The translations under genes were made by a program, and so were the position numbers. Of a stretch of 64,000 nucleotides of DNA, positions 1 to 18,991 are shown in pieces. Below the pieces are notes generated by a model. It was not told where the DNA came from, did not search any database, and saw only the letters and a program-made list of their open reading frames with translations. The DNA comes from Pseudomonadota bacterium (GTDB taxonomy: Bacteria > Pseudomonadota > Gammaproteobacteria > Burkholderiales > JAJZUU01): positions 2,341 through 66,340 of the forward strand of contig JAJZUU010000007.1 in NCBI GenBank assembly GCA_021848325.1, read 5' to 3'. Position 1 is the stretch's first letter; the number at the start of each line of letters is the position of its first letter.

Positions 1-1459
1 AGATCAAGGGCGAACCCGGGTCCCGGGCCACCTGAAGTCCGGTGTACATCTTGGGGGTGAAGTCGGAAAAGCTGAACAGCATGGGCAGGGCATCGCGCCG
101 CAACACATCGGCGGCGTGGGCGATCACCGGTCCCAGTTCGGCCGCCCGGTCCGCGGGTACGCCCTGCTCCTTCATGGCCGCGGCGAATGCCGCACGGCGG
201 GCGTCCGGCGTCGCCGCGCCGCTCTGCTCGAGCTGCTTCAGGTAGCCGGCAAGAAGCGCCATCATCTTCCCGTCGCCCGGCGAAAAGCCCAGGTCGTCAT
301 AGGTCATATCCTTGTCGCCCATGCGCGCGTAGGCCAGCATGTTGGGGTAAAGCTGGTACACGCGGTAGGTAATCGTGCCGTTTGCCGGGGACTGCAAGGT
401 CACGTCAAGGGAGGGTCCCACGTCCCGCAGCATCTGTTTGCCGGCGTCCTGGGACATGTTGACCACATTGTGCTGCCGCAATTCCGAGATGTTGATCTTG
501 TTGCCCATCTCGTCGCCCAGTTGCTTGTCCACGTTGCTGTGGACCAGTTGCTGCGGAAAATTGGGTTTGGTGAGATCGGTCAGCACGAACGACACCGCCG
601 AGCCGGCGTCTCCGAAAGAGGCCTGGTAGAAGGTAATGCCCTTATAGGTCAGCGGATCGTTGACGGTGATCCGCTTGGCCGCCAGCACCTTGCCGCCTTC
701 CCCTACCAGCGCGAGATCGGTGCGGTAGTCGCTGGGCATGCCGGTGTGGTAATAATCGATGGCGAACTGGTTGTTGCGCACCTCGAACGGCAGCTTGATC
801 TCCCGGTAGCTGCTGCCGTCCTGCACGTAGACGATATCCGCGCTGTCCTTGGTGGGAATGTTCATCACCCCGCGAAAGCCGAAGTGCGAGGTCACCAGCC
901 CTCCGACCGCGATAATCACCACACCGCCGTGCACCAGAAAAAACCCGATCTTTGCCCAGCGCCCCTTGCGGGCCACCAGCAGTTCGTTCCCCTCCCCGTC
1001 GCGGCCGCGCACGAATTCGCGGAATCCGGCTTGGTGCAGGACGCCCCGCACCTGGTCGGGCTGGGCGGCGGCAATCTCGCCCGCAACCTCCATCGTGGCG
1101 GCATCCCCGGGCCAATCCGGGACCTTGGCCAGAGGCTGCATCTGCCGCCAGACACGCGGCCCGAAACGCACCAGGGCGATGCTGACGGACAGCACCAGGA
1201 AGGCCAAAATCCCGATGAACCACCAGGAGGCGTACATATTGTACAGGCCCATGGCGGCGAACACCTTGTACCAGAACGGGCCCAGCTTGGACAGGTAGAA
1301 ATCGGAGGGCTGGTTCTGCTCCAGCACGGTGCCGATCACGCTGAGGCCCGCAACCATGCACAGCAGGAAGATCGCCGTGGGCATGGAAGAGATGAAGTCG
1401 AATATGCGCAGCGCCAGGTTTTTCTGGGATTCGGATTTCGGTACAATCAGTTCGGCCAT
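1..1459 (-). CDS. resB: Cytochrome c biogenesis protein ResB/CcsB (System II), 3' end outside window
   Basis: Not in the ORF track; translated by hand from ATG 1459: MAELIVPK...FISSMPTAIFLL..LSVIGTVLEQ..LGPFW..LYNMYASWWF...KGRWAKIGFFLVHGG...GMPSDYRTDL...ITVNDPLTYKGITFYQASFG...YTGLQVARDPG, typical ResB motifs; frame open to position 1. Confidence 0.9.
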   Translation of the reverse strand, partial: MAELIVPKSESQKNLALRIFDFISSMPTAIFLLCMVAGLSVIGTVLEQNQPSDFYLSKLGPFWYKVFAAMGLYNMYASWWFIGILAFLVLSVSIALVRFGPRVWRQMQPLAKVPDWPGDAATMEVAGEIAAAQPDQVRGVLHQAGFREFVRGRDGEGNELLVARKGRWAKIGFFLVHGGVVIIAVGGLVTSHFGFRGVMNIPTKDSADIVYVQDGSSYREIKLPFEVRNNQFAIDYYHTGMPSDYRTDLALVGEGGKVLAAKRITVNDPLTYKGITFYQASFGDAGSAVSFVLTDLTKPNFPQQLVHSNVDKQLGDEMGNKINISELRQHNVVNMSQDAGKQMLRDVGPSLDVTLQSPANGTITYRVYQLYPNMLAYARMGDKDMTYDDLGFSPGDGKMMALLAGYLKQLEQSGAATPDARRAAFAAAMKEQGVPADRAAELGPVIAHAADVLRRDALPMLFSFSDFTPKMYTGLQVARDPGSPLI

Positions 1460-1569
1460 CGGTACGTCCCATCGAAGATCAGTTGCCGTGCCATTCCTGG
1501 ACAACGGGGCAGGGCGATTTTCCGGGCACGCTTCGCCCGGTTGACTTGATCGAACATTTTAGCAGATCA

Positions 1570-1585
1570 AGCAAGAAAGGTGCCA
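1570..1585 (-). promoter_or_regulatory. Sigma-54 (-24/-12) promoter for resB
   Basis: Minus strand reads TGGCACCTTTCTTGCT, matching TGGCAC-N5-TTGC, 110 nt upstream of the resB ATG. Confidence 0.8.
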
Positions 1586-1666
1586 TTGCATTCGGTTCCG
1601 GACATGGGTGCGCGGTCGCCGAGGAGCCCGCCACCCCGGGAGGGGACCCGGCTTCCGCGGGGTATA

Positions 1667-1686
1667 TTTTCCCATTTCCGGGAAAA
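1667..1686. promoter_or_regulatory. Palindromic operator, candidate enhancer-binding-protein site
   Basis: TTTTCCC-ATTTCC-GGGAAAA with perfect 7-bp arms, about 80-100 nt upstream of the sigma-54 site; near copy at 17799-17818. Confidence 0.6.
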
Positions 1687-1694
1687 CGGTCTTC

Positions 1695-2327
1695 CTATTT
1701 CCCGTTTTCAGGATTCTTCCCGCCGTCCTCGCGCGATCGTCTGGCCGCGCCCGCGGGTTTCTTGGCCAGGGCCGCCTGCCACTCCCAGATGGCCGCGCGC
1801 GCCTTGCGCACGAAGGGGTCGGCATTGCTGGACAAATGGACGTAGGTGCGCATCGCCCCCAGGGCCCCTTCCAGGTCCTTCAGCCCCTCCAGGGACTCCG
1901 CCAGGCCGTAGTAGGCGTTGGCCTGCATCGGGCGCAGGTTGATGGCGGTCTGGAAGAAATCGCGGGCGATGTCGTAGCGCTTCAGGCCGATCATGGCAAA
2001 ACCCATGTTCACGTTGGCCTCGGGCATGTCGGGAGCCAGTTCCAGCAGGCGGTGCAGCGCCGTCGCGGCGTCGTCGTAGCGCCCCGCGTGCAGCATTACC
2101 ACGGCCTCCTTGAAGCGCTGATCGATCTCGGCCCGCCTGGCCTGGCTGGCATGCACCTCGGGCTCCATCACCGGGTCGGCCGGGCGCGTAACGGGGCCCG
2201 CCGCCGGCGGCCCTGCGGGGCCGGCCCCGTGGCCCGGCGAGGACGCCGTCCGCAAAATGCCCGCCACGCCGCCGGCGAAAACCACCAGCGCCAGCAAGAA
2301 CAGCCGGTTGCGCCACCAACCCGTCAT
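1695..2327 (-). CDS. Membrane-anchored TPR protein, probably a cytochrome c maturation accessory
   Basis: 210 aa; N-terminal hydrophobic segment, Pro/Ala linker, TPR helices (AMIGLKRYDIARDFFQTAINLRPMQANAYYGLA); ATG overlaps ccsA stop. Confidence 0.8.
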   Translation of the reverse strand: MTGWWRNRLFLLALVVFAGGVAGILRTASSPGHGAGPAGPPAAGPVTRPADPVMEPEVHASQARRAEIDQRFKEAVVMLHAGRYDDAATALHRLLELAPDMPEANVNMGFAMIGLKRYDIARDFFQTAINLRPMQANAYYGLAESLEGLKDLEGALGAMRTYVHLSSNADPFVRKARAAIWEWQAALAKKPAGAARRSREDGGKNPENGK

Positions 2328-3148
2328 ATCATCCCCTTATGGGGCGCCATGCTCACGAACGGCACCCCGAAAAAAGTCAGAAACGCCAATACGAACACGC
2401 CCAGGATCATCAATGCGCCCAACCGGGGCGAGATCGGGTAGCTCAGACGCAGGTGCAACGCCGCCGCCAGCGCCAGCCAGGTAACGAAGGCCCAGGTTTC
2501 CAGGGGATCCCAGGCCCAGTACCGGCCCCATGCGCCCTGGGCCCATACCGCCCCCGCGATCAGCATCAGGCTCTCGAATACCAGGGCCAGGGTCATGATG
2601 CGCCACGCCAGGGCATCCAGCGACACGTCCGGCGGCATGTCGCGAAACCAGGCTGAAAGACGCGTGCGCCGCAACCACATCACCCCCGCCAAACCGACCG
2701 CCAGCAGGCAGGTGCCGAGAAATACCTTGCCCATGGCCACGTGGGCCCACAGCCAGGGCGTATCGTAGGTCGGCGGCAATGGACCGCCCGCCGGCCGCAA
2801 CACCAGCAGCCACAGCCCCAGCAGCAGAATGACCGGAAGGACCACGACGGAGGTCGGCCGCAGCACCGGCAGCCGCCAATAGGCAAAGGCATAGACCACG
2901 CCGAGGCTGAATAAGTTGCTGAGCAGTATCTCGAACATGTTGAGGAACGGGCCGTGCCCGGTGCGCGCCCAGCGCGCGGCGATGCCGACGGAGACGAGCA
3001 CCAGGGCGGTGAGCAGCATGCCCAGCACGACCTTTTCCCGCTGTTGCCCCCGGGCAACCCCTGCCACCGCGACGCCGGCCGTGACGGCATAGGCGGCGAC
3101 GGCCATCCAGATCCAGGGCAGTTCGGGCGCGCGCGCCAGGGCGTTCAT
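2324..3148 (-). CDS. ccsA: Cytochrome c biogenesis protein CcsA/ResC (heme lyase, WWD domain)
   Basis: Start MNALARAP at 3148 (ATGA overlap with upstream gene); WLWAHV, WAQGAWGRYWAWDPLETWAFVTW, ALHLR; multiple TM helices. Confidence 0.9.
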   Translation of the reverse strand: MNALARAPELPWIWMAVAAYAVTAGVAVAGVARGQQREKVVLGMLLTALVLVSVGIAARWARTGHGPFLNMFEILLSNLFSLGVVYAFAYWRLPVLRPTSVVVLPVILLLGLWLLVLRPAGGPLPPTYDTPWLWAHVAMGKVFLGTCLLAVGLAGVMWLRRTRLSAWFRDMPPDVSLDALAWRIMTLALVFESLMLIAGAVWAQGAWGRYWAWDPLETWAFVTWLALAAALHLRLSYPISPRLGALMILGVFVLAFLTFFGVPFVSMAPHKGMI

Positions 3149-4149
3149 GTGTGCAAGGCCCCATGCCCGGCGGAAAAGCCGGCAGCCCGGCCGGTCCGCT
3201 CCGGGCCCGAAGACCCGAGCCGGCGCCAAAAGTGCCAGGCCAGCCCGCCCACGCCGGCCACCGCCACGACAAACAGCCACGGCAGGGTGGGATCGTAGAA
3301 TATCTTGTACCCCATCCAGGTGCGCAACTCGTCGAAACGCAGGCTGCCGCCCTCCAGGCGCGCCGTTTGTCCCGGCTTCAGCTCGATCCGTCGCCCACCC
3401 GAGGAAACGATCAGGACGCCGCTGCTGTCCTTCCGGTCCATGGTCCAGGCGGCATCCGCTCTGAGGGGGGTCTTGAGCCGCAGCCAGAACCTGATCTCCG
3501 CCCCCCCGGGCGGAGTCCATCTGTTGTCCTGCTTCCAGTCGAACAGTGGATAAGAGGGCATGTGGATCGCTCCGGTTACCGGCTTCCCGTGTTCCGGGAT
3601 CCAGGTAAGCAGGGGCGCAAAGCCCTTGTTGGAACTGGTGTAAAACCGGTAGCCATGCAGGATGAGCGGGTGGTCGTCGCCGACCACCATCGGCACCAGA
3701 CGCCCCGCGCCATCCGGGGCCAGCACCTGGCTGCGGGTGGTGGAACGGCTCAACTCCGGGCCGTAGTCCACGGTGAAAGGGCCCTGCACGAAGAAGACCT
3801 TGGAAAATCCCATGGGGTGCAGTGGGCCCTTGGCCAGGACCTGCACGTCGCCGGGCAGAAAAGCGCTGTCCTCCGTCACCTCCACCACCCCGTCCAGGTG
3901 AACCAGCCGCCCCACCGCCGCCAGGACGACGATCCCCAGCAGCGCCAGGTGGAACACCAGCAGCCCGCCCTGGCGGTTGATGCCCGGGTTGACCGCGATG
4001 GCGGCCAGCAGATTGACCGCCAGCAGGCCCAACGGGGCCACCAGCCACCAAAGGGGGGCGGCAGGGCGGTTGTAGCTCAGCAGCACCCCCGCGCACAGCA
4101 AGGCCATCCCCACCAGGGTGAGTCGGACGGAGGACAACAAACGCAACAT
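3145..4149 (-). CDS. Short ResB/CcsB-like cytochrome c biogenesis protein
   Basis: 334 aa; N-terminal TMs, LLVFHLALL His motif, VVGDDHPLILHGYRFY (ResB NxPL-like), C-terminal YDPTLPWL TM; coupled to ccsA. Confidence 0.75.
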   Translation of the reverse strand: MLRLLSSVRLTLVGMALLCAGVLLSYNRPAAPLWWLVAPLGLLAVNLLAAIAVNPGINRQGGLLVFHLALLGIVVLAAVGRLVHLDGVVEVTEDSAFLPGDVQVLAKGPLHPMGFSKVFFVQGPFTVDYGPELSRSTTRSQVLAPDGAGRLVPMVVGDDHPLILHGYRFYTSSNKGFAPLLTWIPEHGKPVTGAIHMPSYPLFDWKQDNRWTPPGGAEIRFWLRLKTPLRADAAWTMDRKDSSGVLIVSSGGRRIELKPGQTARLEGGSLRFDELRTWMGYKIFYDPTLPWLFVVAVAGVGGLAWHFWRRLGSSGPERTGRAAGFSAGHGALHT

Positions 4150-4153
4150 CCCG

Positions 4154-6637
4154 TCATGGTACGTTATTGCAGGCCTCGGTGCCAGACCACATCCAGAATA
4201 TCCCGGTCTGGCCGTTGCCCGGCGCCCCCACCGAGCCGCAGTTGCCGGCGCTCCAGTTGCCGCTTTTGGCGAAGGTCTTCACCTTCAGCACCGCCCGGTT
4301 GTAATAGGGCGGATTGGTGTAGCCGGCGGTGGTGTTGTTGCGCACCTGGGTCCCCGCCGCCAGCCCCCCTTCCGGACCCACGTCGTTCAGGTTCACCAGG
4401 AACGCCTTGTTCTTCCAGCCGTGGGGCACCGCCACGTGGCACAGGCTGCAGCGGAAGTTGGTCACTACCGCTGCGTGGTAGACGTGCCAGTTGGTGGTCC
4501 CGGCGCCGCCACCGCCGCCGCTGCCGCTGAAGCCGCTCTTGAGCACCGTCGGCGGATTGGGGTTGCCGTACTGGTTGTAGTCGTGGCACTTGAAACACAA
4601 GTCGCCGGGCGTCCCTTCCCCCGTCCCCGTCGTCTTGTCCCCGCTCCATGGCCCCTTCAGGATGAAGTTGTTGGTCGATCCGTGCGGCCCCCATGGCTGG
4701 CCCGTGCCGGGCACCACCGTCCCCGACGCCGTGTTGGAACCATGGCAGTCGCTGCAGTACATGGTCTCGTTACCCACGTTGGCGTTCCACGGGCTCAGCC
4801 ACAGGTTCGCGCTGGCGTTGCCCCGCACCGCCGGCGTGCGCCCGGTGTTCAGCATCACCGGGTGCCACGAGCGGTGGTTGTTGGTCTGGAAGTTGACCGT
4901 GTAGCCCTGCCCCGGCGGCACCCCGGCAAACGCCCCGGAGTCGGTGGTGGTCACTTCCCCCTGGTGGCTCACCGGCGACTGGAATTCCATCGCCTGGTTG
5001 GTGAATTGCAGCAGGCCGTTGGTGCCCGAGGGCGTCCCGCCCCCGGAGGAGCCCAGCATCGGCGGGGTGGTGCCGAAGCCGTAGTCGGAGTGGCATTTGA
5101 GGCAGATCTGGTATTCCCGGGTGACGTAGGATGCGGTCACGGTGGAGTCCACGCTCCCCCCCGGGTCCCCGCGCTTGAGGGTGTAGCTGGCGGGCAACGA
5201 CCCGAAGCTGTGGGCGCTGTAGTTGGGCTCCACCCCCCAGGTGCCCCGGAGCGCCCCGGAAGCGATGTTGCTGCCCAGGATGTGGGTGGACGTGGCGTCC
5301 GGACTGGCCAGGTTGCCGTAGAACACCTGGTTGCGGATGATCCGGTGCGGGTTGTGGCAGTCGGTGCATTCGGCGTGCCGGTTGGTGAGGTTGCCGAATC
5401 CCAGCAGGCTCCTCGATTCGATGAAGTCCGAGCCTTCATTGGTCGGGGCGTCGGCGTTGTAGGTCCCGATGTCATGCACCTCCATCCCCGCCGGCTGGTC
5501 GGTGCTGGTGATGGGCATGTGCCGCGGCAGGCTGAAGTCGTCCTGGATGTCGGCCACGTTGGTGGTGGGGGTGACGATGCTCTGGGCGCTGTTGGTGTGG
5601 CACTGGTAGCAGGTCTGCTCGATCGCCGAGTTGCCGCCGCTCTTGGGCACGGCGGTGCTGTCTGTGCCTTCCCGCAACAGGCGCCGCGCCCCTTGCACGG
5701 TGTGGGGGTCGTGGCAGTTCAGGCACGCCGCCTGCCAGACCTGGGTGCCGCTGGGGAATTCCCGCTGGGCGGCGGCGCTGGCGGTATAGGTCTCGTTGGC
5801 CACCAGCGGGTTGGCGTGGGCGGAGTAGGCCCAGGTCGGCCCCGCCTTGTCGTGACAGGCCAGGCAGATGGTGTCGCTGTTCGGGTTGAATGCGCCGCCG
5901 GTGGGCGCCGCCGCCTGCAGCCGGTTGGCCCGCAGGAATTTGATGTCCCCCAGGGTGGGGTCGGTGTCCCGAATGTGGGGGTCGTGGCAGGTGGTGCACT
6001 CCAGCTTGCCCGCTTCCAGCGGCAGCAGGGGTTTCGTTAGCGAGCCGGGCACCCGCGTGCCCACCGTGGTGCCGTCCGGCGCCCACAGCTCGCCGTCCTT
6101 GGACGCCAGGGTGCTGTCGTAGGTGAACGAGATGGGGTGGTCGTTGGTGAGGTTGACCCCGAGGTCGCGGGTGTAGCCGGTCAGCGCCCCGGCCCCGGTG
6201 GGCATGGTGCCCCCCACCCCGGTGCCGTTCATGGCTATGCTGGCCGGGCTCTGCCCGTTCAGCACGTCCACCGTGCCCAGCGCCATGGTGCCGTCGTGGC
6301 ACGACAGGCACAGCTTGGAATAACCGTCCGGCGCGGCTGCCAGCTCGGCGGGATTGGCGACCATGGAGCTGGAAAGGTACGGCGTGTAGGTGGACCCGGC
6401 CAGCTTGCGGTTCCACAGCGGCGCCTGGATCGGCTCCGCGCCGTGCGGCGTGTGGCAGAATACGCATATCTGCGATTCGCTCACCGCCGTCACGCTGCCC
6501 GTCCCGCTCACCGACAGGTTGTGCTTGGTGTTGCGGATGTCCGCAATCCGCGTCGCCAGCGCCAGCTCCGTCCCCGCCCACAGCAATCCAAGGCCCAGGC
6601 CCGCCGCAATAAACCAGGGGCCAGTTCTTCTGCGCAT
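4154..6637 (-). CDS. Undecaheme c-type cytochrome, copy 1
   Basis: 11 CxxCH (CVFCH, CLSCH, CTTCH, CLACH, CLNCH, CYQCH, CTDCH, CLKCH, CSDCH, CFKCH, CSLCH); signal peptide MRRRTGPWFIAAGL...ALA; start 6637 chosen by homology with copy 2 (track start 6664). Confidence 0.92.
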   Translation of the reverse strand: MRRRTGPWFIAAGLGLGLLWAGTELALATRIADIRNTKHNLSVSGTGSVTAVSESQICVFCHTPHGAEPIQAPLWNRKLAGSTYTPYLSSSMVANPAELAAAPDGYSKLCLSCHDGTMALGTVDVLNGQSPASIAMNGTGVGGTMPTGAGALTGYTRDLGVNLTNDHPISFTYDSTLASKDGELWAPDGTTVGTRVPGSLTKPLLPLEAGKLECTTCHDPHIRDTDPTLGDIKFLRANRLQAAAPTGGAFNPNSDTICLACHDKAGPTWAYSAHANPLVANETYTASAAAQREFPSGTQVWQAACLNCHDPHTVQGARRLLREGTDSTAVPKSGGNSAIEQTCYQCHTNSAQSIVTPTTNVADIQDDFSLPRHMPITSTDQPAGMEVHDIGTYNADAPTNEGSDFIESRSLLGFGNLTNRHAECTDCHNPHRIIRNQVFYGNLASPDATSTHILGSNIASGALRGTWGVEPNYSAHSFGSLPASYTLKRGDPGGSVDSTVTASYVTREYQICLKCHSDYGFGTTPPMLGSSGGGTPSGTNGLLQFTNQAMEFQSPVSHQGEVTTTDSGAFAGVPPGQGYTVNFQTNNHRSWHPVMLNTGRTPAVRGNASANLWLSPWNANVGNETMYCSDCHGSNTASGTVVPGTGQPWGPHGSTNNFILKGPWSGDKTTGTGEGTPGDLCFKCHDYNQYGNPNPPTVLKSGFSGSGGGGGAGTTNWHVYHAAVVTNFRCSLCHVAVPHGWKNKAFLVNLNDVGPEGGLAAGTQVRNNTTAGYTNPPYYNRAVLKVKTFAKSGNWSAGNCGSVGAPGNGQTGIFWMWSGTEACNNVP

Positions 6638-6638: not shown

Positions 6639-6814
6639 TGTCGCCCCGCTCCGAAATCTGGCATGCCAATCCGGCTTCGCCGGTCGGCCCACCCGTTATC
6701 TTAGCGTAACGGCACCGGGTCGGAAAACTTTAGCGACTTTGGGGCAAGGGAAAACCAAAAAGCGCCGGGCAGGACCCGCTGCAACCCGCCCGGCGCCTTC
6801 CACGGCGACTGCCG

Positions 6815-9310
6815 TCACGGCACGTTGTTGCAGGCCTCGCTGCCGCCGCCCATCATGCCGACCATCCAGGCAATCCCGGTCTGGCCGTTGCCCGGCGCCC
6901 CCACCGAGCCGCAGTTGCCGGCGCTCCAGTTGCCGCTTTTGGCGAAGGTCACCACCTTCAGCACCGCCCGGTTGTAATAGGGCGGATTGGTGTAGCCGGC
7001 GGTGGTGTTGTTGCGCACCTGGGTCCCCGCCGCCAGCCCCCCTTCCGGACCCACGTCGTTCAGGTTCACCAGGAACGCCTTGTTCTTCCAGCCGTGGGGC
7101 ACCGCCACGTGGCACAGGCTGCAGCGGAAGTTGGTCACTACCGCTGCGTGGTAGACGTGCCAGTTGGTGGTCCCGGCGCCGCCACCGCCGCCGCTGCCGC
7201 TGAAGCCGCTCTTGAGCACCGTCGGCGGATTGGGGTTGCCGTACTGGTTGTAGTCGTGGCACTTGAAACACAAGTCGCCGGGCGTCCCTTCCCCCGTCCC
7301 CGTCGTCTTGTCCCCGCTCCATGGCCCCTTCAGGATGAAGTTGTTGGTCGATCCGTGCGGCCCCCATGGCTGGCCCGTGCCGGGCACCACCGTCCCCGAC
7401 GCCGTGTTGGAACCATGGCAGTCGCTGCAGTACATGGTCTCGTTACCCACGTTGGCGTTCCACGGGCTCAGCCACAGGTTCGCGCTGGCGTTGCCCCGCA
7501 CCGCCGGCGTGCGCCCGGTGTTCAGCATCACCGGGTGCCACGAGCGGTGGTTGTTGGTCTGGAAGTTGACCGTGTAGCCCTGCCCCGGCGGCACCCCGGC
7601 AAACGCCCCGGAGTCGGTGGTGGTCACTTCCCCCTGGTGGCTCACCGGCGACTGGAATTCCATCGCCTGGTTGGTGAATTGCAGCAGGCCGTTGGTGCCC
7701 GAGGGCGTCCCGCCCCCGGAGGAGCCCAGCATCGGCGGGGTGGTGCCGAAGCCGTAGTCGGAGTGGCATTTGAGGCAGATCTGGTATTCCCGGGTGACGT
7801 AGGATGCGGTCACGGTGGAGTCCACGCTCCCCCCCGGGTCCCCGCGCTTGAGGGTGTAGCTGGCGGGCAACGACCCGAAGCTGTGGGCGCTGTAGTTGGG
7901 CTCCACCCCCCAGGTGCCCCGGAGCGCCCCGGAAGCGATGTTGCTGCCCAGGATGTGGGTGGACGTGGCGTCCGGACTGGCCAGGTTGCCGTAGAACACC
8001 TGGTTGCGGATGATCCGGTGCGGGTTGTGGCAGTCGGTGCATTCGGCGTGCCGGTTGGTGAGGTTGCCGAATCCCAGCAGGCTCCTCGATTCGATGAAGT
8101 CCGAGCCTTCATTGGTCGGGGCGTCGGCGTTGTAGGTCCCGATGTCATGCACCTCCATCCCCGCCGGCTGGTCGGTGCTGGTGATGGGCATGTGCCGCGG
8201 CAGGCTGAAGTCGTCCTGGATGTCGGCCACGTTGGTGGTGGGGGTGACGATGCTCTGGGCGCTGTTGGTGTGGCACTGGTAGCAGGTCTGCTCGATCGCC
8301 GAGTTGCCGCCGCTCTTGGGCACGGCGGTGCTGTCTGTGCCTTCCCGCAACAGGCGCCGCGCCCCTTGCACGGTGTGGGGGTCGTGGCAGTTCAGGCACG
8401 CCGCCTGCCAGACCTGGGTGCCGCTGGGGAATTCCCGCTGGGCGGCGGCGCTGGCGGTATAGGTCTCGTTGGCCACCAGCGGGTTGGCGTGGGCGGAGTA
8501 GGCCCAGGTCGGCCCCGCCTTGTCGTGACAGGCCAGGCAGATGGTGTCGCTGTTCGGGTTGAATGCGCCGCCGGTGGGCGCCGCCGCCTGCAGCCGGTTG
8601 GCCCGCAGGAATTTGATGTCCCCCAGGGTGGGGTCGGTGTCCCGAATGTGGGGGTCGTGGCAGGTGGTGCACTCCAGCTTGCCCGCTTCCAGCGGCAGCA
8701 GGGGTTTCGTTAGCGAGCCGGGCACCCGCGTGCCCACCGTGGTGCCGTCCGGCGCCCACAGCTCGCCGTCCTTGGACGCCAGGGTGCTGTCGTAGGTGAA
8801 CGAGATGGGGTGGTCGTTGGTGAGGTTGACCCCGAGGTCGCGGGTGTAGCCGGTCAGCGCCCCGGCCCCGGTGGGCATGGTGCCCCCCACCCCGGTGCCG
8901 TTCATGGCTATGCTGGCCGGGCTCTGCCCGTTCAGCACGTCCACCGTGCCCAGCGCCATGGTGCCGTCGTGGCACGACAGGCACAGCTTGGAATAACCGT
9001 CCGGCGCGGCTGCCAGCTCGGCGGGATTGGCGACCATGGAGCTGGAAAGGTACGGCGTGTAGGTGGACCCGGCCAGCTTGCGGTTCCACAGCGGCGCCTG
9101 GATCGGCTCCGCGCCGTGCGGCGTGTGGCAGAATACGCATATCTGCGATTCGCTCACCGCCGTCACGCTGCCCGTCCCGCTCACCGACAGGTTGTGCTTG
9201 GTGTTGCGGATGTCCGCAATCCGCGTCGCCAGCGCCAGCTCCGTCCCCGCCCACAGCAATCCAAGGCCCAGGCCCGCCGCAATAAACCAGGGGCTAGTTC
9301 TTCTGCGCAT
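6815..9310 (-). CDS. Undecaheme c-type cytochrome, copy 2
   Basis: 831 aa, same 11 CxxCH; C-terminus GIAWMVGMMGGGSEACNNVP vs GIFWMWSGTEACNNVP in copy 1; start overlaps the 3' end of the upstream NHL gene. Confidence 0.92.
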   Translation of the reverse strand: MRRRTSPWFIAAGLGLGLLWAGTELALATRIADIRNTKHNLSVSGTGSVTAVSESQICVFCHTPHGAEPIQAPLWNRKLAGSTYTPYLSSSMVANPAELAAAPDGYSKLCLSCHDGTMALGTVDVLNGQSPASIAMNGTGVGGTMPTGAGALTGYTRDLGVNLTNDHPISFTYDSTLASKDGELWAPDGTTVGTRVPGSLTKPLLPLEAGKLECTTCHDPHIRDTDPTLGDIKFLRANRLQAAAPTGGAFNPNSDTICLACHDKAGPTWAYSAHANPLVANETYTASAAAQREFPSGTQVWQAACLNCHDPHTVQGARRLLREGTDSTAVPKSGGNSAIEQTCYQCHTNSAQSIVTPTTNVADIQDDFSLPRHMPITSTDQPAGMEVHDIGTYNADAPTNEGSDFIESRSLLGFGNLTNRHAECTDCHNPHRIIRNQVFYGNLASPDATSTHILGSNIASGALRGTWGVEPNYSAHSFGSLPASYTLKRGDPGGSVDSTVTASYVTREYQICLKCHSDYGFGTTPPMLGSSGGGTPSGTNGLLQFTNQAMEFQSPVSHQGEVTTTDSGAFAGVPPGQGYTVNFQTNNHRSWHPVMLNTGRTPAVRGNASANLWLSPWNANVGNETMYCSDCHGSNTASGTVVPGTGQPWGPHGSTNNFILKGPWSGDKTTGTGEGTPGDLCFKCHDYNQYGNPNPPTVLKSGFSGSGGGGGAGTTNWHVYHAAVVTNFRCSLCHVAVPHGWKNKAFLVNLNDVGPEGGLAAGTQVRNNTTAGYTNPPYYNRAVLKVVTFAKSGNWSAGNCGSVGAPGNGQTGIAWMVGMMGGGSEACNNVP

Positions 9311-11847: not shown

Positions 11848-12411
11848 TCATTTTGGAATCACGCTGTGACAGCGGTTGCATTCGCTCAGGGGAAAGGCCA
11901 CGGTACCATGGCACTTGCCGCAATACTGGCCATTGAGAATGGCCAGCATGGTCAGCCCGGGGGTGGGGCCCTCCTTGAACATGGAGTCGTGGCAGGTGGT
12001 ACAGTCCAGCCAGGCCGTGTGGGGCCTGTGGGGAAACCGCACCCAGGGCGTACCGCCGGTATTTTTCATGATCGTGTCCTGGTCCAGCGTCCTGACCCGG
12101 GTCTGCGGCTGCAGTTTGCTGCGCGGATCGATGTACCCTTCGTTCAGCGCCTGGTCCCAGTTCACCTTGTTGCCGACGTAATCCTGGGGCAGCTTGGACA
12201 GGGAGTCGCCCGGTTCCTGCAACAATGAAATATCCGGATTGGCAGGGTCGTGCAAGCCGTCGCTGATGAGCGCCGCCCAGACGTTCTTTACCGGGGCCAC
12301 GACCGTCCCGCCCCACGCCACACCCGCGCCGATGACCGAAGCCGCGACCAGCAAGGCCGCCCATCTGCCGACACGGCGGTTCCGCAACAAACACACAATA
12401 TCGCTACCCAT
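11848..12411 (-). CDS. Periplasmic c7-type triheme cytochrome c
   Basis: Signal peptide; VRFPHRPH, CTTCH, CGKCH, CNRCH; start MGSDIV chosen over track start 12489. Confidence 0.88.
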   Translation of the reverse strand: MGSDIVCLLRNRRVGRWAALLVAASVIGAGVAWGGTVVAPVKNVWAALISDGLHDPANPDISLLQEPGDSLSKLPQDYVGNKVNWDQALNEGYIDPRSKLQPQTRVRTLDQDTIMKNTGGTPWVRFPHRPHTAWLDCTTCHDSMFKEGPTPGLTMLAILNGQYCGKCHGTVAFPLSECNRCHSVIPK

Positions 12412-12575
12412 CACTGCTTTTGTCTTCCGTCTAAAGATCATCTCTGCCAAGTGCGTCGCCTGGGCGGCCTGCGCACACCCCATACCCATCCCGATATCCC
12501 ATTTTATCGCCTAAACGGCCCGGCCGCCAAAGCCGTCCGCGATTTTGCGGTCCTCCGTCCGGCCGGGAACAAATT

Positions 12576-13325
12576 TTATCGATACACCTTCCACACGCGT
12601 TTCCGCGCGCGGATCATCTCTTCGATGATCTGGTCGGACTTGGGCCGGGTATGGCAGCGGGCACACTCGGTGGGCGGAAACGCCACCGAGCCGTGGCACA
12701 CGCCGCACTTCTGGCCACGCATGATTCCTTCCATGGTGATCCGGTTGGCGCCCTTCTGAGGGACGAAGATGCCGGCATGGCAATTGGCGCAGGCCAGCCA
12801 GCGGGTATGGGCCCCATGGGAGAAGATCACGTCCGGGGTACTCCCTTTCACCTTGAATTCGATATTGAGATCAAACACCGGGGGAGCCGTACCCGCCTTG
12901 TCCAATTCCCAGCGGGGCTTGATTTTGCCCTGGGCCAGCACCTTCATCCAGTCTACCCCATTCCCTGCCCGGTACGGGTCCTTCGGCCAAGGGGAGAATA
13001 CCTCCGACGGCCGTTGCAGCAGGTGCAACTGGTCGTCCGCCGGATCGTGGATGCCGTCCGTGGCGGGCGGCAAGTTGAGCGGCGGCGCCGGCTTCAACAG
13101 GCGATTCATCGGGACCGGGCCGCTGGGCGGGGGCACCTCCGGCGGCGCCATAAAGGCAGGTTTCCCCATCTCGCTGCCCGCCGCGCGCGCCACGGCATCA
13201 TCGGGACTGCGAGGCACGTACCTAACCGGGGGCTCCACGCTGCACCCCACTATCAGCGTCCCAAGGGCCACCGTCGCCAGCCCGCCGAGGAGTCCCAGCC
13301 GCTTAATGTCGACCAGCATATTCAT
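12576..13325 (-). CDS. c7-type triheme cytochrome c lipoprotein
   Basis: Lipobox LIVGC, Pro-rich linker, VIFSHGAH, CANCH, CGVCH, CARCH. Confidence 0.88.
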   Translation of the reverse strand: MNMLVDIKRLGLLGGLATVALGTLIVGCSVEPPVRYVPRSPDDAVARAAGSEMGKPAFMAPPEVPPPSGPVPMNRLLKPAPPLNLPPATDGIHDPADDQLHLLQRPSEVFSPWPKDPYRAGNGVDWMKVLAQGKIKPRWELDKAGTAPPVFDLNIEFKVKGSTPDVIFSHGAHTRWLACANCHAGIFVPQKGANRITMEGIMRGQKCGVCHGSVAFPPTECARCHTRPKSDQIIEEMIRARKRVWKVYR

Positions 13326-13409: not shown

Positions 13410-15464
13410 CTACATATCGCCGAAGTTCCTGATCGCGTTGAACATGATGGAGGTATGGGTCTGGTTGCCGAATTGGCCCACCCGCGCGATCAGTCCGAGT
13501 TGGGTGCGTCCGATGGAGTAATTCAGACGATTTTCCCAGGAACGGGTTTCGTACTCCTGCGGTCCGCTCAGGACGGGGAGCGCCACCTGTCCGTAGAGGG
13601 TGAGTTGAGACATGAACTGCAGGCGCGGCACACCGAAGGCGCGCTGGTGCCGGTAGGTCAAGTCCCCGCTGGAAGAGGTGGTGAACTGGCTAATAGGCTG
13701 GTCGATGGTGCTCTGACGCGAGGACTGGATAGTCAGGTCCCCGCTCAAGGAGGAGTAGCGATTGAGCAGGGTATTCACCGTCGCCTGAAAATTGATCATT
13801 TGCATGGCGTCCCGGCCGTCATTGAGGGAGCGCGAATCGGTTGCGCTCAAGCGCAGCAGGGTCGAGGTCTTGTCCGCCCCCTTGTTCCAGGTCAGGGACG
13901 CGGTATCGGACAGGCGCCGCGTGGAGGCCACGGCGGTATCCAGGTCGCTGGAAATGCTCTGGCTCAGGTTCATCGCCAACCTGGCGCCCGGGCCGGTCTC
14001 GATGCTGCGGCTCAGGCCGTGGCCCGCCGCCAGGGACAGGTGCCGCCCCGCGGCCAATCCGGTGCGGTTGCTGGCCGTACCCGAGCCGAACCAATAGTAC
14101 TGATACTTGCCGAAATTGAGCGTGTCGGACTGGTAAGTGGCGCCCAGTGACTGATTGGTGCTGGTCGAGGTAGTGCCGCCGCTGGCGGTTTGAGTCAGGT
14201 TGGCAGTGGCATTGAGGCTGACGTTCCTGTTCAGCCGATAGATCGCGCCGCCATTGAGGTTGGCGGAGCGCAAGCTGGTAGGCCCGGTGTCGAGGGCGTA
14301 CAGGCGCACCCCCCCGTTCACGGTCAGGGGGCTCCGTTCCGGGCGCCAGAAGGCGTAGCTGTTCAACTGCAGGAACCGGGTATTGGTGCCTGTGGTGGCG
14401 AGGTTGTAGCGATTGTCGTTGAGGGTGGCCTGGGAATCCACCGAAAACTCCTGGTTCGGCGTGTAGTTGTGGCGAACGTCCAGGGTATTGAGCAGCGCAG
14501 TCTCGCCGGTATCGAGACGCTCGTTCTTGTTGGTGGTACCGCTGACATCCACACTCTGTTTCCCGAAACGGGTCGACGCGCCAAACTGCAGCCCATTCTG
14601 CTGGTAGTCCCCGACGGTTCCGGATTCCCCGGTCTGACTGCTCTGGTCGAAGGCCAGCCGGTAGCGGGTATTCCCCTGCAGCGTCTGGTAGGTCTGACTG
14701 AAGCCGAGGCGCTTGTAGCGGTAGGCCGCCCCGATGGTCCCCGCCAAGCCCGTATCCATCCGGCTGTCCGTGACGTCGTAGTGCGCCTCGAAGGGAAAAC
14801 GGCTTTCCGGCAGCAGCGCCAGGCTGGCGTTTCCGGTGAGGTCGCGGGAACTGCCACCCTGTGTCCCGCTCGTCCAATCCTGGGAGATCCCGATCCCGCC
14901 GCTGACCAAGGCAAACCAGGGGCGCCAGATAAAGCTGCTGCCGTTGAGGGTGGCCGTAAGGAGCTGGTCCCGCGTTTTTTGCGTCCCGATGTCCTCGCTC
15001 CGAAAGGTGTAGCCCACTGAGCCCCAGGTGCGGATGGGAGAGAGGCGCCAGGGGACGAGGCCCTTGATCTTCTCGAAGAGGCCCTTGCTCTTCCCGGGAC
15101 CCGACCCCTCTTCCCCGGTCCCTGACCCCACGTCCCCATTACCCGGCGCCGGGGACTCGACACCTGCGCCGTTCGCGGCGGCGGGGTACGCCGGGCCGGG
15201 GATCCCACCCTCCCCCGGGGGCTGTTGCTCCGCCAAGGTATCCGTCAGGGTCAGATGCAGTGCGTCGCCGGTGGCCGGCTCCGGCTCGGGGGATGACTCA
15301 GACTGCTCGGTTCGCGCTTCCAGGTCCCGGGACAACGCAAGACGCAACGCGTCCCCGGTCACGGGAAACGCCGCCGGCAACGCGCAACGGGGCCAGGCGA
15401 ACGTCAGCCACGCAGCCATCAGGACATATGCCGAGCCCCCGCCTGTGGCGCGCCGTTCACCCAC
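13410..15464 (-). CDS. Predicted outer-membrane beta-barrel (porin/channel)
   Basis: 684 aa, signal-like N-terminus, Ser/Thr/Gln/Asn-rich alternating beta-strand pattern, aromatic residue near C-terminus (SIMFNAIRNFGDM), no heme motif; start uncertain. Confidence 0.7.
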   Translation of the reverse strand: MGERRATGGGSAYVLMAAWLTFAWPRCALPAAFPVTGDALRLALSRDLEARTEQSESSPEPEPATGDALHLTLTDTLAEQQPPGEGGIPGPAYPAAANGAGVESPAPGNGDVGSGTGEEGSGPGKSKGLFEKIKGLVPWRLSPIRTWGSVGYTFRSEDIGTQKTRDQLLTATLNGSSFIWRPWFALVSGGIGISQDWTSGTQGGSSRDLTGNASLALLPESRFPFEAHYDVTDSRMDTGLAGTIGAAYRYKRLGFSQTYQTLQGNTRYRLAFDQSSQTGESGTVGDYQQNGLQFGASTRFGKQSVDVSGTTNKNERLDTGETALLNTLDVRHNYTPNQEFSVDSQATLNDNRYNLATTGTNTRFLQLNSYAFWRPERSPLTVNGGVRLYALDTGPTSLRSANLNGGAIYRLNRNVSLNATANLTQTASGGTTSTSTNQSLGATYQSDTLNFGKYQYYWFGSGTASNRTGLAAGRHLSLAAGHGLSRSIETGPGARLAMNLSQSISSDLDTAVASTRRLSDTASLTWNKGADKTSTLLRLSATDSRSLNDGRDAMQMINFQATVNTLLNRYSSLSGDLTIQSSRQSTIDQPISQFTTSSSGDLTYRHQRAFGVPRLQFMSQLTLYGQVALPVLSGPQEYETRSWENRLNYSIGRTQLGLIARVGQFGNQTHTSIMFNAIRNFGDM

Positions 15465-15493: not shown

Positions 15494-16522
15494 CTATTTG
15501 GCATCCGTGTCATGCCCTCCTCCGGCAAGCGGTCGATAGAACGAGGTGTCCATCAGGATCGGCGTCTGCTTCCTCAATTTGGCGATCAGGCCCTTCCAGG
15601 CCAGGTCGCTTTGCTCCCTGCGCCACAGGTCGCGCGCCCGTTTCCGGCTCTCAGCAAAGCTGTCCAACCGCGCGGGCCGGCGCTGTTCCAGGCGGAAAAT
15701 CGCCACCCCTTCCAGCAGGCCCACGGGAGGCGAAATCTCGCCCGGCTTGAGTTTGGCGATGGCGCTCTCGGCCAGTCTGCCCAGCATGCCCTGGTGCAGG
15801 TAGCCCATGTCGCCGCCCTGGGCGGCGGTGGAGTCCCCGGAATGGGCCTTCGCCTCGGCGGCGAAATCCGCGCCCTTGCGCAGGCGCTTGATGATCTCCT
15901 CCGCCTCTTTGGTGGCCTTCTCCCGGGCCGAGTTGGGGGCCGAGGGGTCGACCTTGAGCAGGATCAGCGACACCCTCACCTGCTCGGGTTCCGTGAACAG
16001 TTTGGGGTGGCTGAGATAATAGGCTTTCAACTGCTTTTCGCTCGGTTCCGGGACGTTTCGCACCTGCCGCTCGACCTGCTCCAGCAAGCTCTTCTTCTCC
16101 ATGTCCGCGGTGAGTTCCGGAAGAAAGCGAGCCCGGTTCTGGCGCCACTTCTCGTTGCCGGCGTAGCGCTTGTCAAACGCCGCCACGTCCTTCTTGACCT
16201 GGGTCTCGTCCGGCTTCAGCCCGCGCCTCTTGGCCTCCTGCAGCAGGAGCGCATTGTTTACCAGTTGCTCCCCCACCTTCCGCTGCAGGGCCGCCAGCTT
16301 GTCCGCGCCCGGATTGGGGTGATAGAAGGTGTTGCGGACCGCCACCAGAAAGGCGTCGTCGTAATTCTTCCGGGTGATGACGGTATCGCCGACCCGCGCG
16401 AAAATCGCCTCCTTGCCCGCCGGCGGCTCCGCGGTGGCGGCGAAACCCTGCCCCGCCAGCAAGATGCCGCCCAGGACGGCCCAGCAAACCCGCTTGGCAG
16501 CGCCACTCATTGCCCCGGTCAT
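15494..16522 (-). CDS. PpiC/SurA-type peptidyl-prolyl isomerase (periplasmic foldase)
   Basis: EQVRVSLILLK, GADFAAEAKAHSGDS..QGGDMG, LKPGEISPPV parvulin motifs; GGAG RBS before ATG 16522. Confidence 0.88.
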   Translation of the reverse strand: MTGAMSGAAKRVCWAVLGGILLAGQGFAATAEPPAGKEAIFARVGDTVITRKNYDDAFLVAVRNTFYHPNPGADKLAALQRKVGEQLVNNALLLQEAKRRGLKPDETQVKKDVAAFDKRYAGNEKWRQNRARFLPELTADMEKKSLLEQVERQVRNVPEPSEKQLKAYYLSHPKLFTEPEQVRVSLILLKVDPSAPNSAREKATKEAEEIIKRLRKGADFAAEAKAHSGDSTAAQGGDMGYLHQGMLGRLAESAIAKLKPGEISPPVGLLEGVAIFRLEQRRPARLDSFAESRKRARDLWRREQSDLAWKGLIAKLRKQTPILMDTSFYRPLAGGGHDTDAK

Positions 16523-16708: not shown

Positions 16709-17587
16709 TTACTTGATGTGGCAAGACAGGCACAAGGCACTGCCCGTATTGGCCACGCGCAGGAAGGTGGTATTGGTGGAGTGTGGATCGTGGCAGCTCG
16801 CGCATTCCACGAACGGCTCGACCGTGCCGGTGGTGGTGTTGGTACGGGTATACAGACTGATGTCCGTCTTCTCCCGCGTTGCGGCCGTTCCCACGCTGGT
16901 ATCCACCCACCACACCTGCTGTCCGTTAACGGTGCCCACGTTCAGAGCCCCATTCGCGGCATACGTCTTGCCATGGAAGTCGCCCGGCAGATTGATGTCC
17001 CCGCCCGCCGCGAGACCGCCGCCGTACTCGATACCCACCGGGTGGTCGTTCCGCAGGTCGACGCCGATGTTGGTGATGATGCCGGAGGCAAGCGTGCCGG
17101 TTGCGGTGTTCACGTCCGCTCCGGTCATGGTGCCGAAGGTCGCGCCGGCCGGGTTATAGCCGCCCGAGCCGGGGGCGTTGATCATCACGTTCAGCGCCAT
17201 GGTGCCGTCGTGGCAGGACAGACAGGCCAGGGACACCGACCCCACCGGGAGCACCGTTCCCTTCAGGGTGCTGGTGCCCAGCTTGTCGTAGGTGGTGTAG
17301 GTGGTCGGGTTGTTCGTGACCTTGTTCCACAGCGGCGCCTGGGCCGATATGTTGGCCCCGTGGGGCGTATGGCAGAACACGCAGATCTCGGTGGTGGTCA
17401 CCGCGCCGGCAGGGTCGAGATGCGCAGCTCCGGTGCCGGTGACGCTCAGGTTGTGCTTGGTGTCTGCAATCGACAGCGCCAGCGCGCTCGGGGAGAAGGC
17501 GCCCGCGACCAGCAACGCGGCCCCTCCCGCCATCAACGCTCCGCCGACCGCCCGCGTAATCGCTTTCTTGGTGAATGGTGTTTTCAT
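16709..17587 (-). CDS. Secreted tetraheme cytochrome c, OmcE-like
   Basis: Signal peptide ending ALA; TKHNLS, EICVFCHTPH, PLWN, SLACLSCHDG, DLRNDHPV, ECASCHDPH, FLR..NTGSALCLSCHIK; strong RBS AGGAAGGA. Confidence 0.9.
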   Translation of the reverse strand: MKTPFTKKAITRAVGGALMAGGAALLVAGAFSPSALALSIADTKHNLSVTGTGAAHLDPAGAVTTTEICVFCHTPHGANISAQAPLWNKVTNNPTTYTTYDKLGTSTLKGTVLPVGSVSLACLSCHDGTMALNVMINAPGSGGYNPAGATFGTMTGADVNTATGTLASGIITNIGVDLRNDHPVGIEYGGGLAAGGDINLPGDFHGKTYAANGALNVGTVNGQQVWWVDTSVGTAATREKTDISLYTRTNTTTGTVEPFVECASCHDPHSTNTTFLRVANTGSALCLSCHIK

Positions 17588-17721
17588 GGCTATCCTTCCT
17601 TTCTCTTGTAGGCCCTTCAGTAGAATCAAGCTGCAAGTCCGAACCATCCTTGCTTGCGTCCCGGACGCATCGGTGTTCGATGATGCCCCCCGAATGCCCG
17701 CTTACTTCCCACCTTACCCTA

Positions 17722-17737
17722 AGCACATAGCGTGCCA
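17722..17737 (-). promoter_or_regulatory. Sigma-54 (-24/-12) promoter for the tetraheme gene
   Basis: Minus strand TGGCACGCTATGTGCT; GG and GC at canonical spacing; 135 nt upstream of ATG. Confidence 0.72.
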
Positions 17738-17798
17738 GAGGTACAATCTACTGGTGTTTCAACTGCCTTGCCGCCCTTTCCGGGTTCTTGCGGGAGGA

Positions 17799-17818
17799 AA
17801 TTCCCGTAAATGGGAAAA
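17799..17818. promoter_or_regulatory. Palindromic operator, candidate enhancer site
   Basis: Minus strand TTTTCCCATTTACGGGAATT, 17/20 identical to 1667-1686; extra half-site TTTCCCAT at 17832-17839. Confidence 0.6.
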
Positions 17819-17869
17819 CATGCCCGTGGAATTTCCCATATTATAGAATATTTCTACCCTCTTGTCTTT

Positions 17870-18991
17870 TTAACCCTTGCGCGGCGTCCTGGCGACGAAG
17901 CCCGCGTCAGCAGGCAGGTCCGCCGGCCGATAGACGTCCAGCTTGCGGTAGAACTGGTCCACCACATAGACCCTGCCATCGTCATCGATAGCGATGCCGG
18001 AGGGCAGCATATAGCGCCCGGGCACATCGTCGCCGCGGTTACCCACCGCCAGCAGCAGTTTCCCCTCGGGCGTGAATATCTGGAAGTTGCCGAAGGCAGC
18101 GTCCACCACGTAGACCAGCCCGGAAGGGTCGAGGGCGATGCCCTTGGGCCGCATGAACTGCCCGCTCTGCTCGCCGATGGCGCCGAAGGTGCGCACGAAG
18201 GTCCCGTCCAGTTTGAATTCCTGCACCCGGAAGTTCATGGCATCCACCACATAAAGCAGGTGGTCCGGCCCGATGGCGGCATAGATGGGCATGTTGAATT
18301 CCCCGGGGCCGGTGCCGCGCTTGCCGATGTCGAACAGGTGCTTGCCGGTGGCGGTGTCGAACACCCGCACCCGGTGCTCATCCGTCTCCACCCCCCCGGT
18401 GTCCACCACGTAGACACGGCTGCCGTCCGGGGTCACGGCGATTCCGCTCGGGCGATGGAACCAGCTCGGCCCGCCCAGGGCGGACAGGTACTTGCCATTG
18501 CCGTCGTAGATCACTACCCGCTTGTTGCTGCCGTCCACCACATAGATGTTCCCCGCCGCATCCGTTGCGATGCCCATGGGCATGGCCAGCTCGCCCGGCC
18601 CCTCCTCCTGGCCAAGGATGGCGAAACGCCTGCCCGGGATATCGAACAACAACACCGCCCGCCGTGCCGTGTCGGTCACGTAGACGCGACCGTGGTGCAC
18701 CGCCACCGCGAACGGCTTGGCCAGCCCCTCCCCTTCTTGCCGGGCGCCGGTAACCATGTATTTGAAGCGCTCGGTCGAATCCTCCTTGACCACGTCGGCG
18801 CTGCTGGTGATGCTGCGTTCGAAGATGTACTTGGCCGGGTCGGGAGGCGGCGGGAACACCGGGTGGAGGTCGACCTTGCTGGGGCCTTCCTGGGTTTCCA
18901 TGGTGGTGCAGGCGCCCAGCACTCCCAGCAATACCAGCAGCAAGGCGGCCTTGCAGACGGCGGCAATGGACGGATACGGAATGCGCTTCAT
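17870..18991 (-). CDS. NHL-repeat beta-propeller lipoprotein
   Basis: Lipobox VLGAC; AKPFAVAV, MPMGIATD, HRPSGIAV, GTGPGEFNMP, MRPKGIALD, MLPSGIAID. Confidence 0.9.
   Translation of the reverse strand: MKRIPYPSIAAVCKAALLLVLLGVLGACTTMETQEGPSKVDLHPVFPPPPDPAKYIFERSITSSADVVKEDSTERFKYMVTGARQEGEGLAKPFAVAVHHGRVYVTDTARRAVLLFDIPGRRFAILGQEEGPGELAMPMGIATDAAGNIYVVDGSNKRVVIYDGNGKYLSALGGPSWFHRPSGIAVTPDGSRVYVVDTGGVETDEHRVRVFDTATGKHLFDIGKRGTGPGEFNMPIYAAIGPDHLLYVVDAMNFRVQEFKLDGTFVRTFGAIGEQSGQFMRPKGIALDPSGLVYVVDAAFGNFQIFTPEGKLLLAVGNRGDDVPGRYMLPSGIAIDDDGRVYVVDQFYRKLDVYRPADLPADAGFVARTPRKG

Follow-up and report, generated by a model that had tools for sequence, protein, structure and literature searches.

The window examined here, a stretch of 64,000 nucleotides of contig JAJZUU010000007.1 from a betaproteobacterium-like metagenome-assembled genome of 3.0 Mb, carries at its beginning a train of multiheme cytochrome and accessory genes which is almost certainly a complete extracellular electron transfer cluster of the Uet/Occ type. 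The tetraheme cytochrome of this cluster is, as judged from its alignment, a full-length homologue of the nanowire subunit OmcE, and the cluster is evolutionarily related to the omcE nanowire cluster of the Desulfuromonadia, because the tetraheme belongs to the OmcE family and the propeller lipoproteins encoded beside it are homologous as well. The explanation which best accommodates the data as a whole, and to which a probability of about 0.55 is assigned, is a Uet/Occ cluster whose tetraheme would polymerise and whose undecaheme would form an end piece. The cluster has already been described elsewhere and the window adds no new architecture to it.

The identity of the cluster rests on gene order and on its recurrence in other genomes. 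A cluster uetABCDEFGHIJ-ccsAB-nrfG was reported in Ca. Tenderia electrophaga and the Tenderiales (Eddie et al. 2022, bioRxiv 10.1101/2022.05.06.490989), and Uet has also been reported from Leptothrix group 2 (PMC13386937) and from Gallionella (PMC10734462). The first-pass annotation, made from the sequence alone, had noted a likeness to Uet, Gallionellaceae included, and had considered the architecture not wholly new; both statements are borne out, as the genes follow the published order uetA-J-ccsAB-nrfG and this order is conserved in dozens of genomes including Gallionella. A cluster of 19 genes that is similar by description, occA-S, is known from Ca. Dechloromonas occultata (Szeinbaum et al., bioRxiv 10.1101/695007); it is reportedly widespread in subsurface Betaproteobacteria, and its proteins were detected during Mn(III) reduction (bioRxiv 10.1101/695007). 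Relatives were sought by scanning one genome per species with the tetraheme as the query, which gave at least 577 stretches encoding tetraheme relatives, and gene contents were counted in the 50 loci with enough flanking sequence. Dozens of Beta- and Gammaproteobacteria share the whole gene order. A peptidyl-prolyl isomerase (PPIase) is encoded in 43, the outer-membrane barrel in 41 and the undecaheme in 36 of the 50 related loci. A gene for an NHL propeller protein lies immediately before the undecaheme in every one of 36 loci and immediately upstream of the tetraheme in 41 of 69. The cultured carriers include Noviherbaspirillum sp. ST 5-3 (NZ_CP176528.1), with the full cluster, and Aromatoleum toluolicum T, a natural variant lacking the undecaheme.

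The closest available relative (L126), whose undecaheme is 65% identical to that of the window, maps onto the window gene for gene with three differences: it has one more c7 gene (four against three), a single undecaheme gene, and a 285-residue protein at the position of UetF, the counterpart of which is missing in the window.

The cluster forms one gene train on the minus strand, running from 19018 to 1, in a window with a GC content of 65%. Its order is NHL, tetraheme, PPIase, barrel, trihemes, NHL, NHL, undecaheme, ResB-like, CcsA and TPR, and its elements are as follows.

17870 to 18991, minus strand: NHL1, NHL propeller lipoprotein with lipobox LGAC (Pfam NHL 4e-29), paired with the tetraheme gene
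17722 to 17819, minus strand: sigma-54-type -24/-12 promoter with palindrome before the tetraheme gene (promoter 17722-17737, TGGCACGCTATGTGCT; palindrome 17800-17819, GTTTTCCC-N6-GGGAAT)
16709 to 17587, minus strand: tetraheme cytochrome, UetA-like, 292 residues, 4 CxxCH (phmmer against the PDB)
15494 to 16522, minus strand: periplasmic SurA-N/parvulin PPIase, UetB-like foldase (Pfam Rotamase 7e-17, SurA_N_3 1e-8)
13410 to 15464, minus strand: 28-strand outer-membrane beta-barrel, UetC-like, 684 residues (AlphaFold2 model)
12576 to 13325, minus strand: triheme c7 lipoprotein T1 with lipobox IVGC, directly after the barrel gene (Pfam Cytochrome_C7 1e-11)
11848 to 12489, minus strand: triheme c7 cytochrome T2 (Pfam Cytochrome_C7 4e-10)
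11429 to 11833, minus strand: small periplasmic triheme c7 cytochrome T3 (NCBIfam TIGR04257 nanowire_3heme, 71 bits, cutoff 40)
10387 to 11418, minus strand: NHL2, NHL propeller lipoprotein of a distinct subtype (Pfam)
9294 to 10385, minus strand: NHL3, NHL propeller lipoprotein with lipobox LSGC, overlapping the start of undecaheme 1 (Pfam NHL 1e-25)
6815 to 9310, minus strand: undecaheme 1, UetJ-like, 831 residues, 11 CxxCH (match to 7TFS)
6766 to 6778, minus strand: terminator-like hairpin with a T-run between the undecaheme genes
4154 to 6637, minus strand: undecaheme 2, 827 residues, 11 CxxCH, tandem duplicate
3145 to 4149, minus strand: short ResB-like protein (the CcsB of the uet literature), 334 residues (Pfam ResB 1.5e-10)
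2324 to 3148, minus strand: CcsA-type System II cytochrome c synthetase subunit with WWD motif (Pfam Cytochrom_C_asm 2.5e-24)
1695 to 2327, minus strand: TPR protein, NrfG-like (Pfam TPR families)
1570 to 1687, minus strand: second sigma-54-type promoter with the same palindrome, before full-length resB (promoter 1570-1585, TGGCACCTTTCTTGCT; palindrome 1668-1687)
2 to 1504, minus strand: full-length ResB, cut by the window start (Pfam ResB 1e-80)

A six-frame scan of positions 1-26000 detected 36 CxxCH motifs, all on the minus strand. Thirty-five of them are in frame and distributed over six genes as 4+3+3+3+11+11, exactly the count and co-orientation previously noted; the remaining motif, at 18251, falls within an NHL gene but not in its reading frame, and was dismissed as spurious. 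Pfam searches identified three NHL six-bladed propellers, a PpiC-rotamase with a SurA-like N-terminus, ResB-like, CcsA-type and TPR proteins and a second, full-length ResB truncated at the window start. Together with the AlphaFold2 model of the barrel, this agrees with the beta-barrel, three NHL lipoproteins, foldase and dedicated heme-attachment genes that had been listed for the block. Lipoboxes were read in the sequences of all three NHL proteins (LGAC, LAGC and LSGC) and in that of triheme T1 (IVGC). The overlapping or closely spaced arrangement is likewise apparent from the coordinates, with 4-nt overlaps between the ResB-like and CcsA genes and between the CcsA and TPR genes, a gap of 4 nt between undecaheme 2 and the ResB-like gene, and an overlap of 17 nt between NHL3 and undecaheme 1. 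Three points of the first-pass annotation require correction, namely that the block lies on the minus strand, that it runs past the window start and that the two undecahemes are a near-identical tandem duplicate. An Rfam scan of positions 1-24000 returned zero matches and thus no riboswitch in the leaders.

The relationship of the tetraheme to OmcE was established using phmmer against the PDB. The protein aligns end to end, from the signal peptide to the C-terminus, with the solved OmcE subunits of D. soudanensis (9YUQ, 4.8e-27) and Geobacter sulfurreducens (7TFS, 6.7e-24), and all four heme motifs are covered. When the tetraheme of the window was aligned with the N-terminus of the undecaheme, the two solved OmcEs and seven betaproteobacterial homologues, the four CxxCH motifs and four distal histidines (TKH, TPH, NDH and DPH) proved invariant, the invariant positions being T43, H45, C69-H73, H76, C122-H126, H182, C262-H266, H269 and C286-H290. 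The chain stops right after the fourth CxxCH, as does that of OmcE. The earlier claim that the cluster encodes a filament subunit thus finds sequence support for the tetraheme, with its full-length homology and eight heme ligands, and is less well supported for the undecaheme. A filament is plausible on this basis and, if one exists, the tetraheme is the likelier subunit of the two.

The propeller lipoproteins point in the same direction. Identity to the NHL lipoproteins of Geobacter-type omcE and related loci from metagenomes is 28-34% for NHL1, whose alignments cover at least 74% of its length (mostly 82-90%), and 28-38% for NHL3, with at least 86% (mostly 95-99%) covered; the E-values are 1e-37 to 1e-56 and the lipobox Cys is invariant. 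Both proteins are homologues of the Geobacter omcE-cluster propeller lipoprotein. The motif (F/V)WPxPPxxPR, which follows the lipobox in the omcE propellers, is present in NHL3, weakly so in NHL1 and lacking in NHL2. Each gene for a cytochrome with an OmcE module is preceded by its own propeller-lipoprotein gene. The Geobacter-type loci used for comparison include one (L087) whose OmcE shares 80% identity with the G. sulfurreducens protein; the genes in these loci run purHDE, ResB, CcsA, a 9-heme and an 8-heme cytochrome, an NHL lipoprotein, OmcE, a barrel of ~760 residues and glycosyltransferases, with a second NHL gene between OmcE and the barrel in some.

An OmcE homologue, a large barrel and a propeller lipoprotein were taken as the marks of nanowire potential by Petersen et al. 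2026 (PMC13712944), in whose account the minimal omcE cluster lies next to resB/ccsB and comprises OmcE, a barrel and a pair each of multiheme cytochromes and propeller lipoproteins. Every component of this minimal cluster is present in the window. Homologues of the OmcE cluster were noted in the Pseudomonadota by the same authors, who come close to linking OmcE with Uet; an explicit statement of that link was not found in the searchable literature. The genome also encodes a second locus of this kind on another contig (C44; L084 1479-3703, minus strand), where an NHL lipoprotein gene, whose product is 46% identical to NHL1, is followed by a gene for an OmcE-like cytochrome of 318 residues with five CxxCH motifs, the extra one being a CLACH between heme 2 and the NDHP motif. 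The five-heme protein thereby falls into the 5-heme OmcE-like class, which has been considered as a possible additional nanowire family (PMC13712944), and the locus would represent a further investment of this genome in OmcE-type proteins.

The principal rival to a tetraheme polymer is the porin-cytochrome arrangement of the original Uet model, in which one multiheme cytochrome sits in the barrel and another on the surface, as in MtrCAB, with no polymer; this is how Uet was modelled by Eddie et al. and Hoover et al. The barrel protein has zero Pfam matches, and AlphaFold2 models it with confidence (pLDDT, the predicted local distance difference test score, 81.6) as 28 long strands spanning residues 145-684, preceded by ~130 disordered residues rich in Pro, Gly and Glu. 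The 990 representative clusters of its family are sharply delimited, and a profile of the family had no match in the PDB, while Foldseek retrieved generic barrels of 22-26 strands only (TM scores up to 0.34; 6R2Q_B 0.30), MtrB among them. As a side observation, the disordered N-terminal segment varies widely in length and the members of the family range from 547 to 887 residues. The combination of barrel and adjacent c7 lipoprotein resembles a porin-cytochrome pair, which favours a discrete conduit, as do the presence of MtrB among the Foldseek matches and the sequence difference from the Geobacter omcE-cluster barrel, while the 28 strands make the barrel larger than MtrB with its 26. A conduit of the Mtr kind is further disfavoured by the lack of an MtrA/MtoA-type decaheme (NCBIfam decahem_SO, of the DmsE family, scores 28-32 bits against a cutoff of 192), by the full-length relationship of the tetraheme to two solved filament subunits and by the retention of omcE-type propeller lipoproteins beside each OmcE-module gene. 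A discrete conduit is considered a serious contender but the less probable one, and the preference of the first-pass annotation for a filament system over a simple porin-cytochrome conduit goes beyond what the sequence alone can decide.

Several observations weigh against a tetraheme polymer with an undecaheme end piece and should be set beside the homology. The eight ligands would be required by a monomeric tetraheme too, and hence are no proof of a polymer. The universality of the tetraheme among the related loci is partly a matter of construction, the tetraheme having been the query. The barrel appears unrelated by sequence to that of the Geobacter omcE cluster, as hmmsearch gave no match between them and hhalign a probability of 16%; barrels diverge fast, however, and a common origin would remain compatible with this result. 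The AlphaFold2 model of the undecaheme, built from an alignment of 31 sequences, has a pLDDT of 34 and is unusable. The authors of Uet prefer the porin-cytochrome model (Eddie et al. 2022), and how much OmcE and OmcS filaments matter physiologically is itself disputed (PMC11077965).

The undecahemes combine an OmcE-like part with one that has no solved relative. Their first ~225 residues match OmcE (7TFS, 7e-30; 1e-34 with the family profile, again at the N-terminus only) and the fourth CxxCH comes after an insertion, so that residues ~1-265 constitute a complete OmcE-like four-heme module; a seven-heme extension follows beyond residue ~265. Across 31 undecaheme sequences the 11 CxxCH motifs and 16 further histidines are invariant, and the NCBIfam and Pfam label for these proteins is 'doubled CXXCH'. 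The family hidden Markov model weakly matches the Geobacter 9-heme cytochrome (i-E 8e-9, model positions 614-718), possibly owing to heme-motif bias. The two genes of the window share 2,449 bp with 6 mismatches, 2,342 bp of which are identical, at a period of 2,673 bp; undecaheme 2 departs from undecaheme 1 at a single position of the signal peptide and over the C-terminal ~50 residues. An identical core with a divergent tail suggests a recent duplication or a gene conversion which spared the tail. The contig of a near-identical strain that was assembled independently (L128) ends 174 nt inside the undecaheme gene, as would be expected at a repeat, and tandem paralogues are found elsewhere, with 2-4 copies in some genomes and four in L125. 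An exact-sequence look-up of the undecaheme returned no record.

That the undecaheme, and not the tetraheme, is the repeating filament subunit, the tetraheme being accessory, would be in keeping with the retention of all OmcE ligands in its N-terminal module, with its 2-4 tandem copies in some genomes and with its high expression in Ca. Tenderia (Eddie et al. 2022). It is nonetheless held to be very unlikely. Two Aromatoleum loci (L029 and L038) and one of an Azospirillum metagenome-assembled genome (L044) are otherwise complete, their last NHL gene being followed by a ResB-like gene with no undecaheme, and the Aromatoleum loci have an extra five-heme OmcE-like gene upstream. Moreover, the undecaheme has no solved filament relative past its N-terminus, and its extension emerges after heme 4, the point at which OmcE terminates in the subunit interface, which would render a homopolymer sterically unlikely.

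The same observations suggest another role for the undecaheme, given that the Aromatoleum and Azospirillum clusters keep everything except this protein, that only its N-terminus resembles OmcE and that the seven-heme extension starts where OmcE ends. The undecaheme might be the missing end piece of OmcE-type filaments, at the base or at the tip, whose OmcE-like module would join the tetraheme polymer through the His-heme interface and whose seven further hemes would connect the filament with either the barrel socket or the substrate, the two copies serving as alternative end pieces. No candidate for such a piece is encoded in the omcE operons of the Desulfuromonadia (PMC13712944). In this full form the proposal is speculative and its probability is low.

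A third alternative is a redox module that stays in the periplasm or bound to the cell and has no function outside it, serving for instance electron storage or detoxification. It draws on the trihemes, as both c7-type trihemes and GSU1996-like domains carry or store electrons in the periplasm; T1 consists of a long Pro-rich linker and a C-terminal c7 domain, and the best PDB match of T3 is the GSU1996 dodecaheme (3OV0, 5e-46). The co-conservation of a large outer-membrane barrel, three lipoproteins of the outer-membrane type and an OmcE-family protein, as well as the expression of Occ proteins during Mn(III) reduction, makes this interpretation highly improbable.

The heme-attachment genes fall into two groups. 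The short ResB-like protein has orthologues of 327-336 residues at the same position in L125 and in the closest relative, and the CcsA-type protein carries the motif WAWDPLETW and matches NCBIfam ccsB at 5e-36, below the equivalog cutoff. The full-length ResB belongs to a general System II set after the cluster, which in the closest relative continues as ResB, CcsA, thioredoxin, sensor kinase and sigma-54 response regulator.

Sites of the form TGGCAY-N5-KTGCW number three in the window, all within the cluster, against an expectation of 0.31. Two of them precede the tetraheme gene and full-length resB, respectively, and in both cases a GTTTTCCC-N6-GGGAAW palindrome lies 65-85 bp further upstream. 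Sigma-54 sites are present at both positions in the closest relative (699-782 region and 15130-15145), where the palindrome was found only before the tetraheme gene; this relative encodes the kinase and the sigma-54 response regulator just past resB/ccsA, while the regulator gene is not within the present window. The third site, at 10336-10351, lies inside the signal-peptide codons of NHL3, lacks a palindrome and is probably a chance match.

Taken together, we infer a tetraheme polymer, a socket formed by the barrel and a c7 lipoprotein, chaperoning by the NHL proteins and the PPIase, and an undecaheme end piece. A sigma-54 promoter with an enhancer-like palindrome would drive the operon and a second such promoter the general resB set. 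The dedicated ResB-like/CcsA/TPR set would attach the 35 hemes in the periplasm, where the SurA/parvulin PPIase and the NHL lipoproteins may hold and deliver the coil-rich cytochromes, each OmcE-module cytochrome having a propeller of its own. The outer-membrane socket could consist of the 28-strand barrel and the c7 lipoprotein of the neighbouring gene, and soluble c7 trihemes would ferry electrons across the periplasm. Outside the cell, the tetraheme would polymerise head to tail by analogy with OmcE, one heme of each subunit being completed by a histidine of the next, and the undecaheme would dock through its OmcE-like module as a base or tip, not as a repeating unit. The sequence does not fix the direction of electron flow; Uet was proposed for electron uptake; the Occ proteins were produced while Mn(III) was being reduced.

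Directly upstream of the cluster, on the same strand, is the following gene.

19172 to 22108, minus strand: MASE3-PAS-GGDEF-EAL protein for cyclic di-GMP turnover (Pfam)

Genes for GGDEF-EAL proteins flank the cluster in ~12 of 80 related loci, and the same gene precedes it in the contig of the near-identical strain; a regulatory role is possible from this context only. Beyond this gene, a divergent stand-alone GGDEF protein is encoded at 22256-22798 on the plus strand. Elsewhere in the window, a single frame at 38228-39418 (plus strand) contains a fatty-acid desaturase domain (residues 15-217) and an ISL3 transposase fragment (residues 271-395), which suggests an insertion-sequence remnant fused to, or truncating, a desaturase gene.

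Uet/Occ clusters are widespread among iron- and sulfur-oxidising, denitrifying and electrode-associated Proteobacteria. If their tetraheme does form wires of the OmcE type, the use of cytochrome nanowires would extend beyond the metal reducers to aerobic and denitrifying lithotrophs, which might run them in the opposite direction.

Comparison with the known systems places the cluster as follows. MtrCAB, MtoAB and PCC3 share with it an outer-membrane barrel and multiheme cytochromes for transfer across the outer membrane, but Mtr includes neither NHL lipoproteins nor a PPIase, and the strand count of the barrel differs. In the omcS companion (osc) operon of G. sulfurreducens (Shen et al. 2025, as described in PMC13194489 and PMC13712944), a filament cytochrome is accompanied by OscH for folding, OscEFG for secretion and OscD for morphology, and a porin-like route has been proposed. 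The logic of accessory factors beside the gene of a filament cytochrome is, by description, the same as in the window. The resemblance to the omcS companion genes which had been suggested earlier therefore holds for the list of parts and does not extend to OmcS itself, since PDB searches with the tetraheme, the undecaheme and the undecaheme profile gave no match to OmcS (6EF8).

The omcE cluster of the Desulfuromonadia shares with the window an OmcE-family tetraheme with an identical ligand pattern, a homologous propeller lipoprotein encoded directly upstream, a large barrel, extra multiheme cytochromes and adjacent resB/ccsA. The Geobacter-type loci (L087, L101 and others) differ in having no PPIase, no c7 trihemes and no cytochrome with a fused OmcE module and extension, and carry 8- and 9-heme cytochromes and often glycosyltransferases instead.

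The occA-S cluster, likened to the window by description only, encodes ten cytochromes c, among them the extracellular undecaheme OccP (922 residues), and 6-NHL proteins. The correspondence is closest with Uet of Ca. Tenderia, whose order uetA-J-ccsAB-nrfG, judged by synteny and description, is identical to that of the window. Relative to Uet, the window lacks the cupredoxin UetF between the trihemes, where the gaps between genes are at most 86 nt, has a full-length resB of the general set after the TPR gene in place of the downstream batABD adhesion genes, and has one more gene for an NHL lipoprotein, situated upstream of the tetraheme, an arrangement common in the Betaproteobacteria. The head of the cluster, with tetraheme (UetA), PPIase (UetB) and barrel (UetC), is in the same order in both, and the 28 strands reported for UetC are the number modelled for the window barrel. 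The three c7-type trihemes UetD, UetE and UetG have three counterparts with GSU1996 as the best PDB match, as in the published account; the NHL pair UetH and UetI is followed by the 11-CxxCH protein UetJ, present twice in the window; and ccsA, ccsB and nrfG (TPR) lie downstream in both. The window thus provides a clean and complete example of the Uet/Occ cluster.

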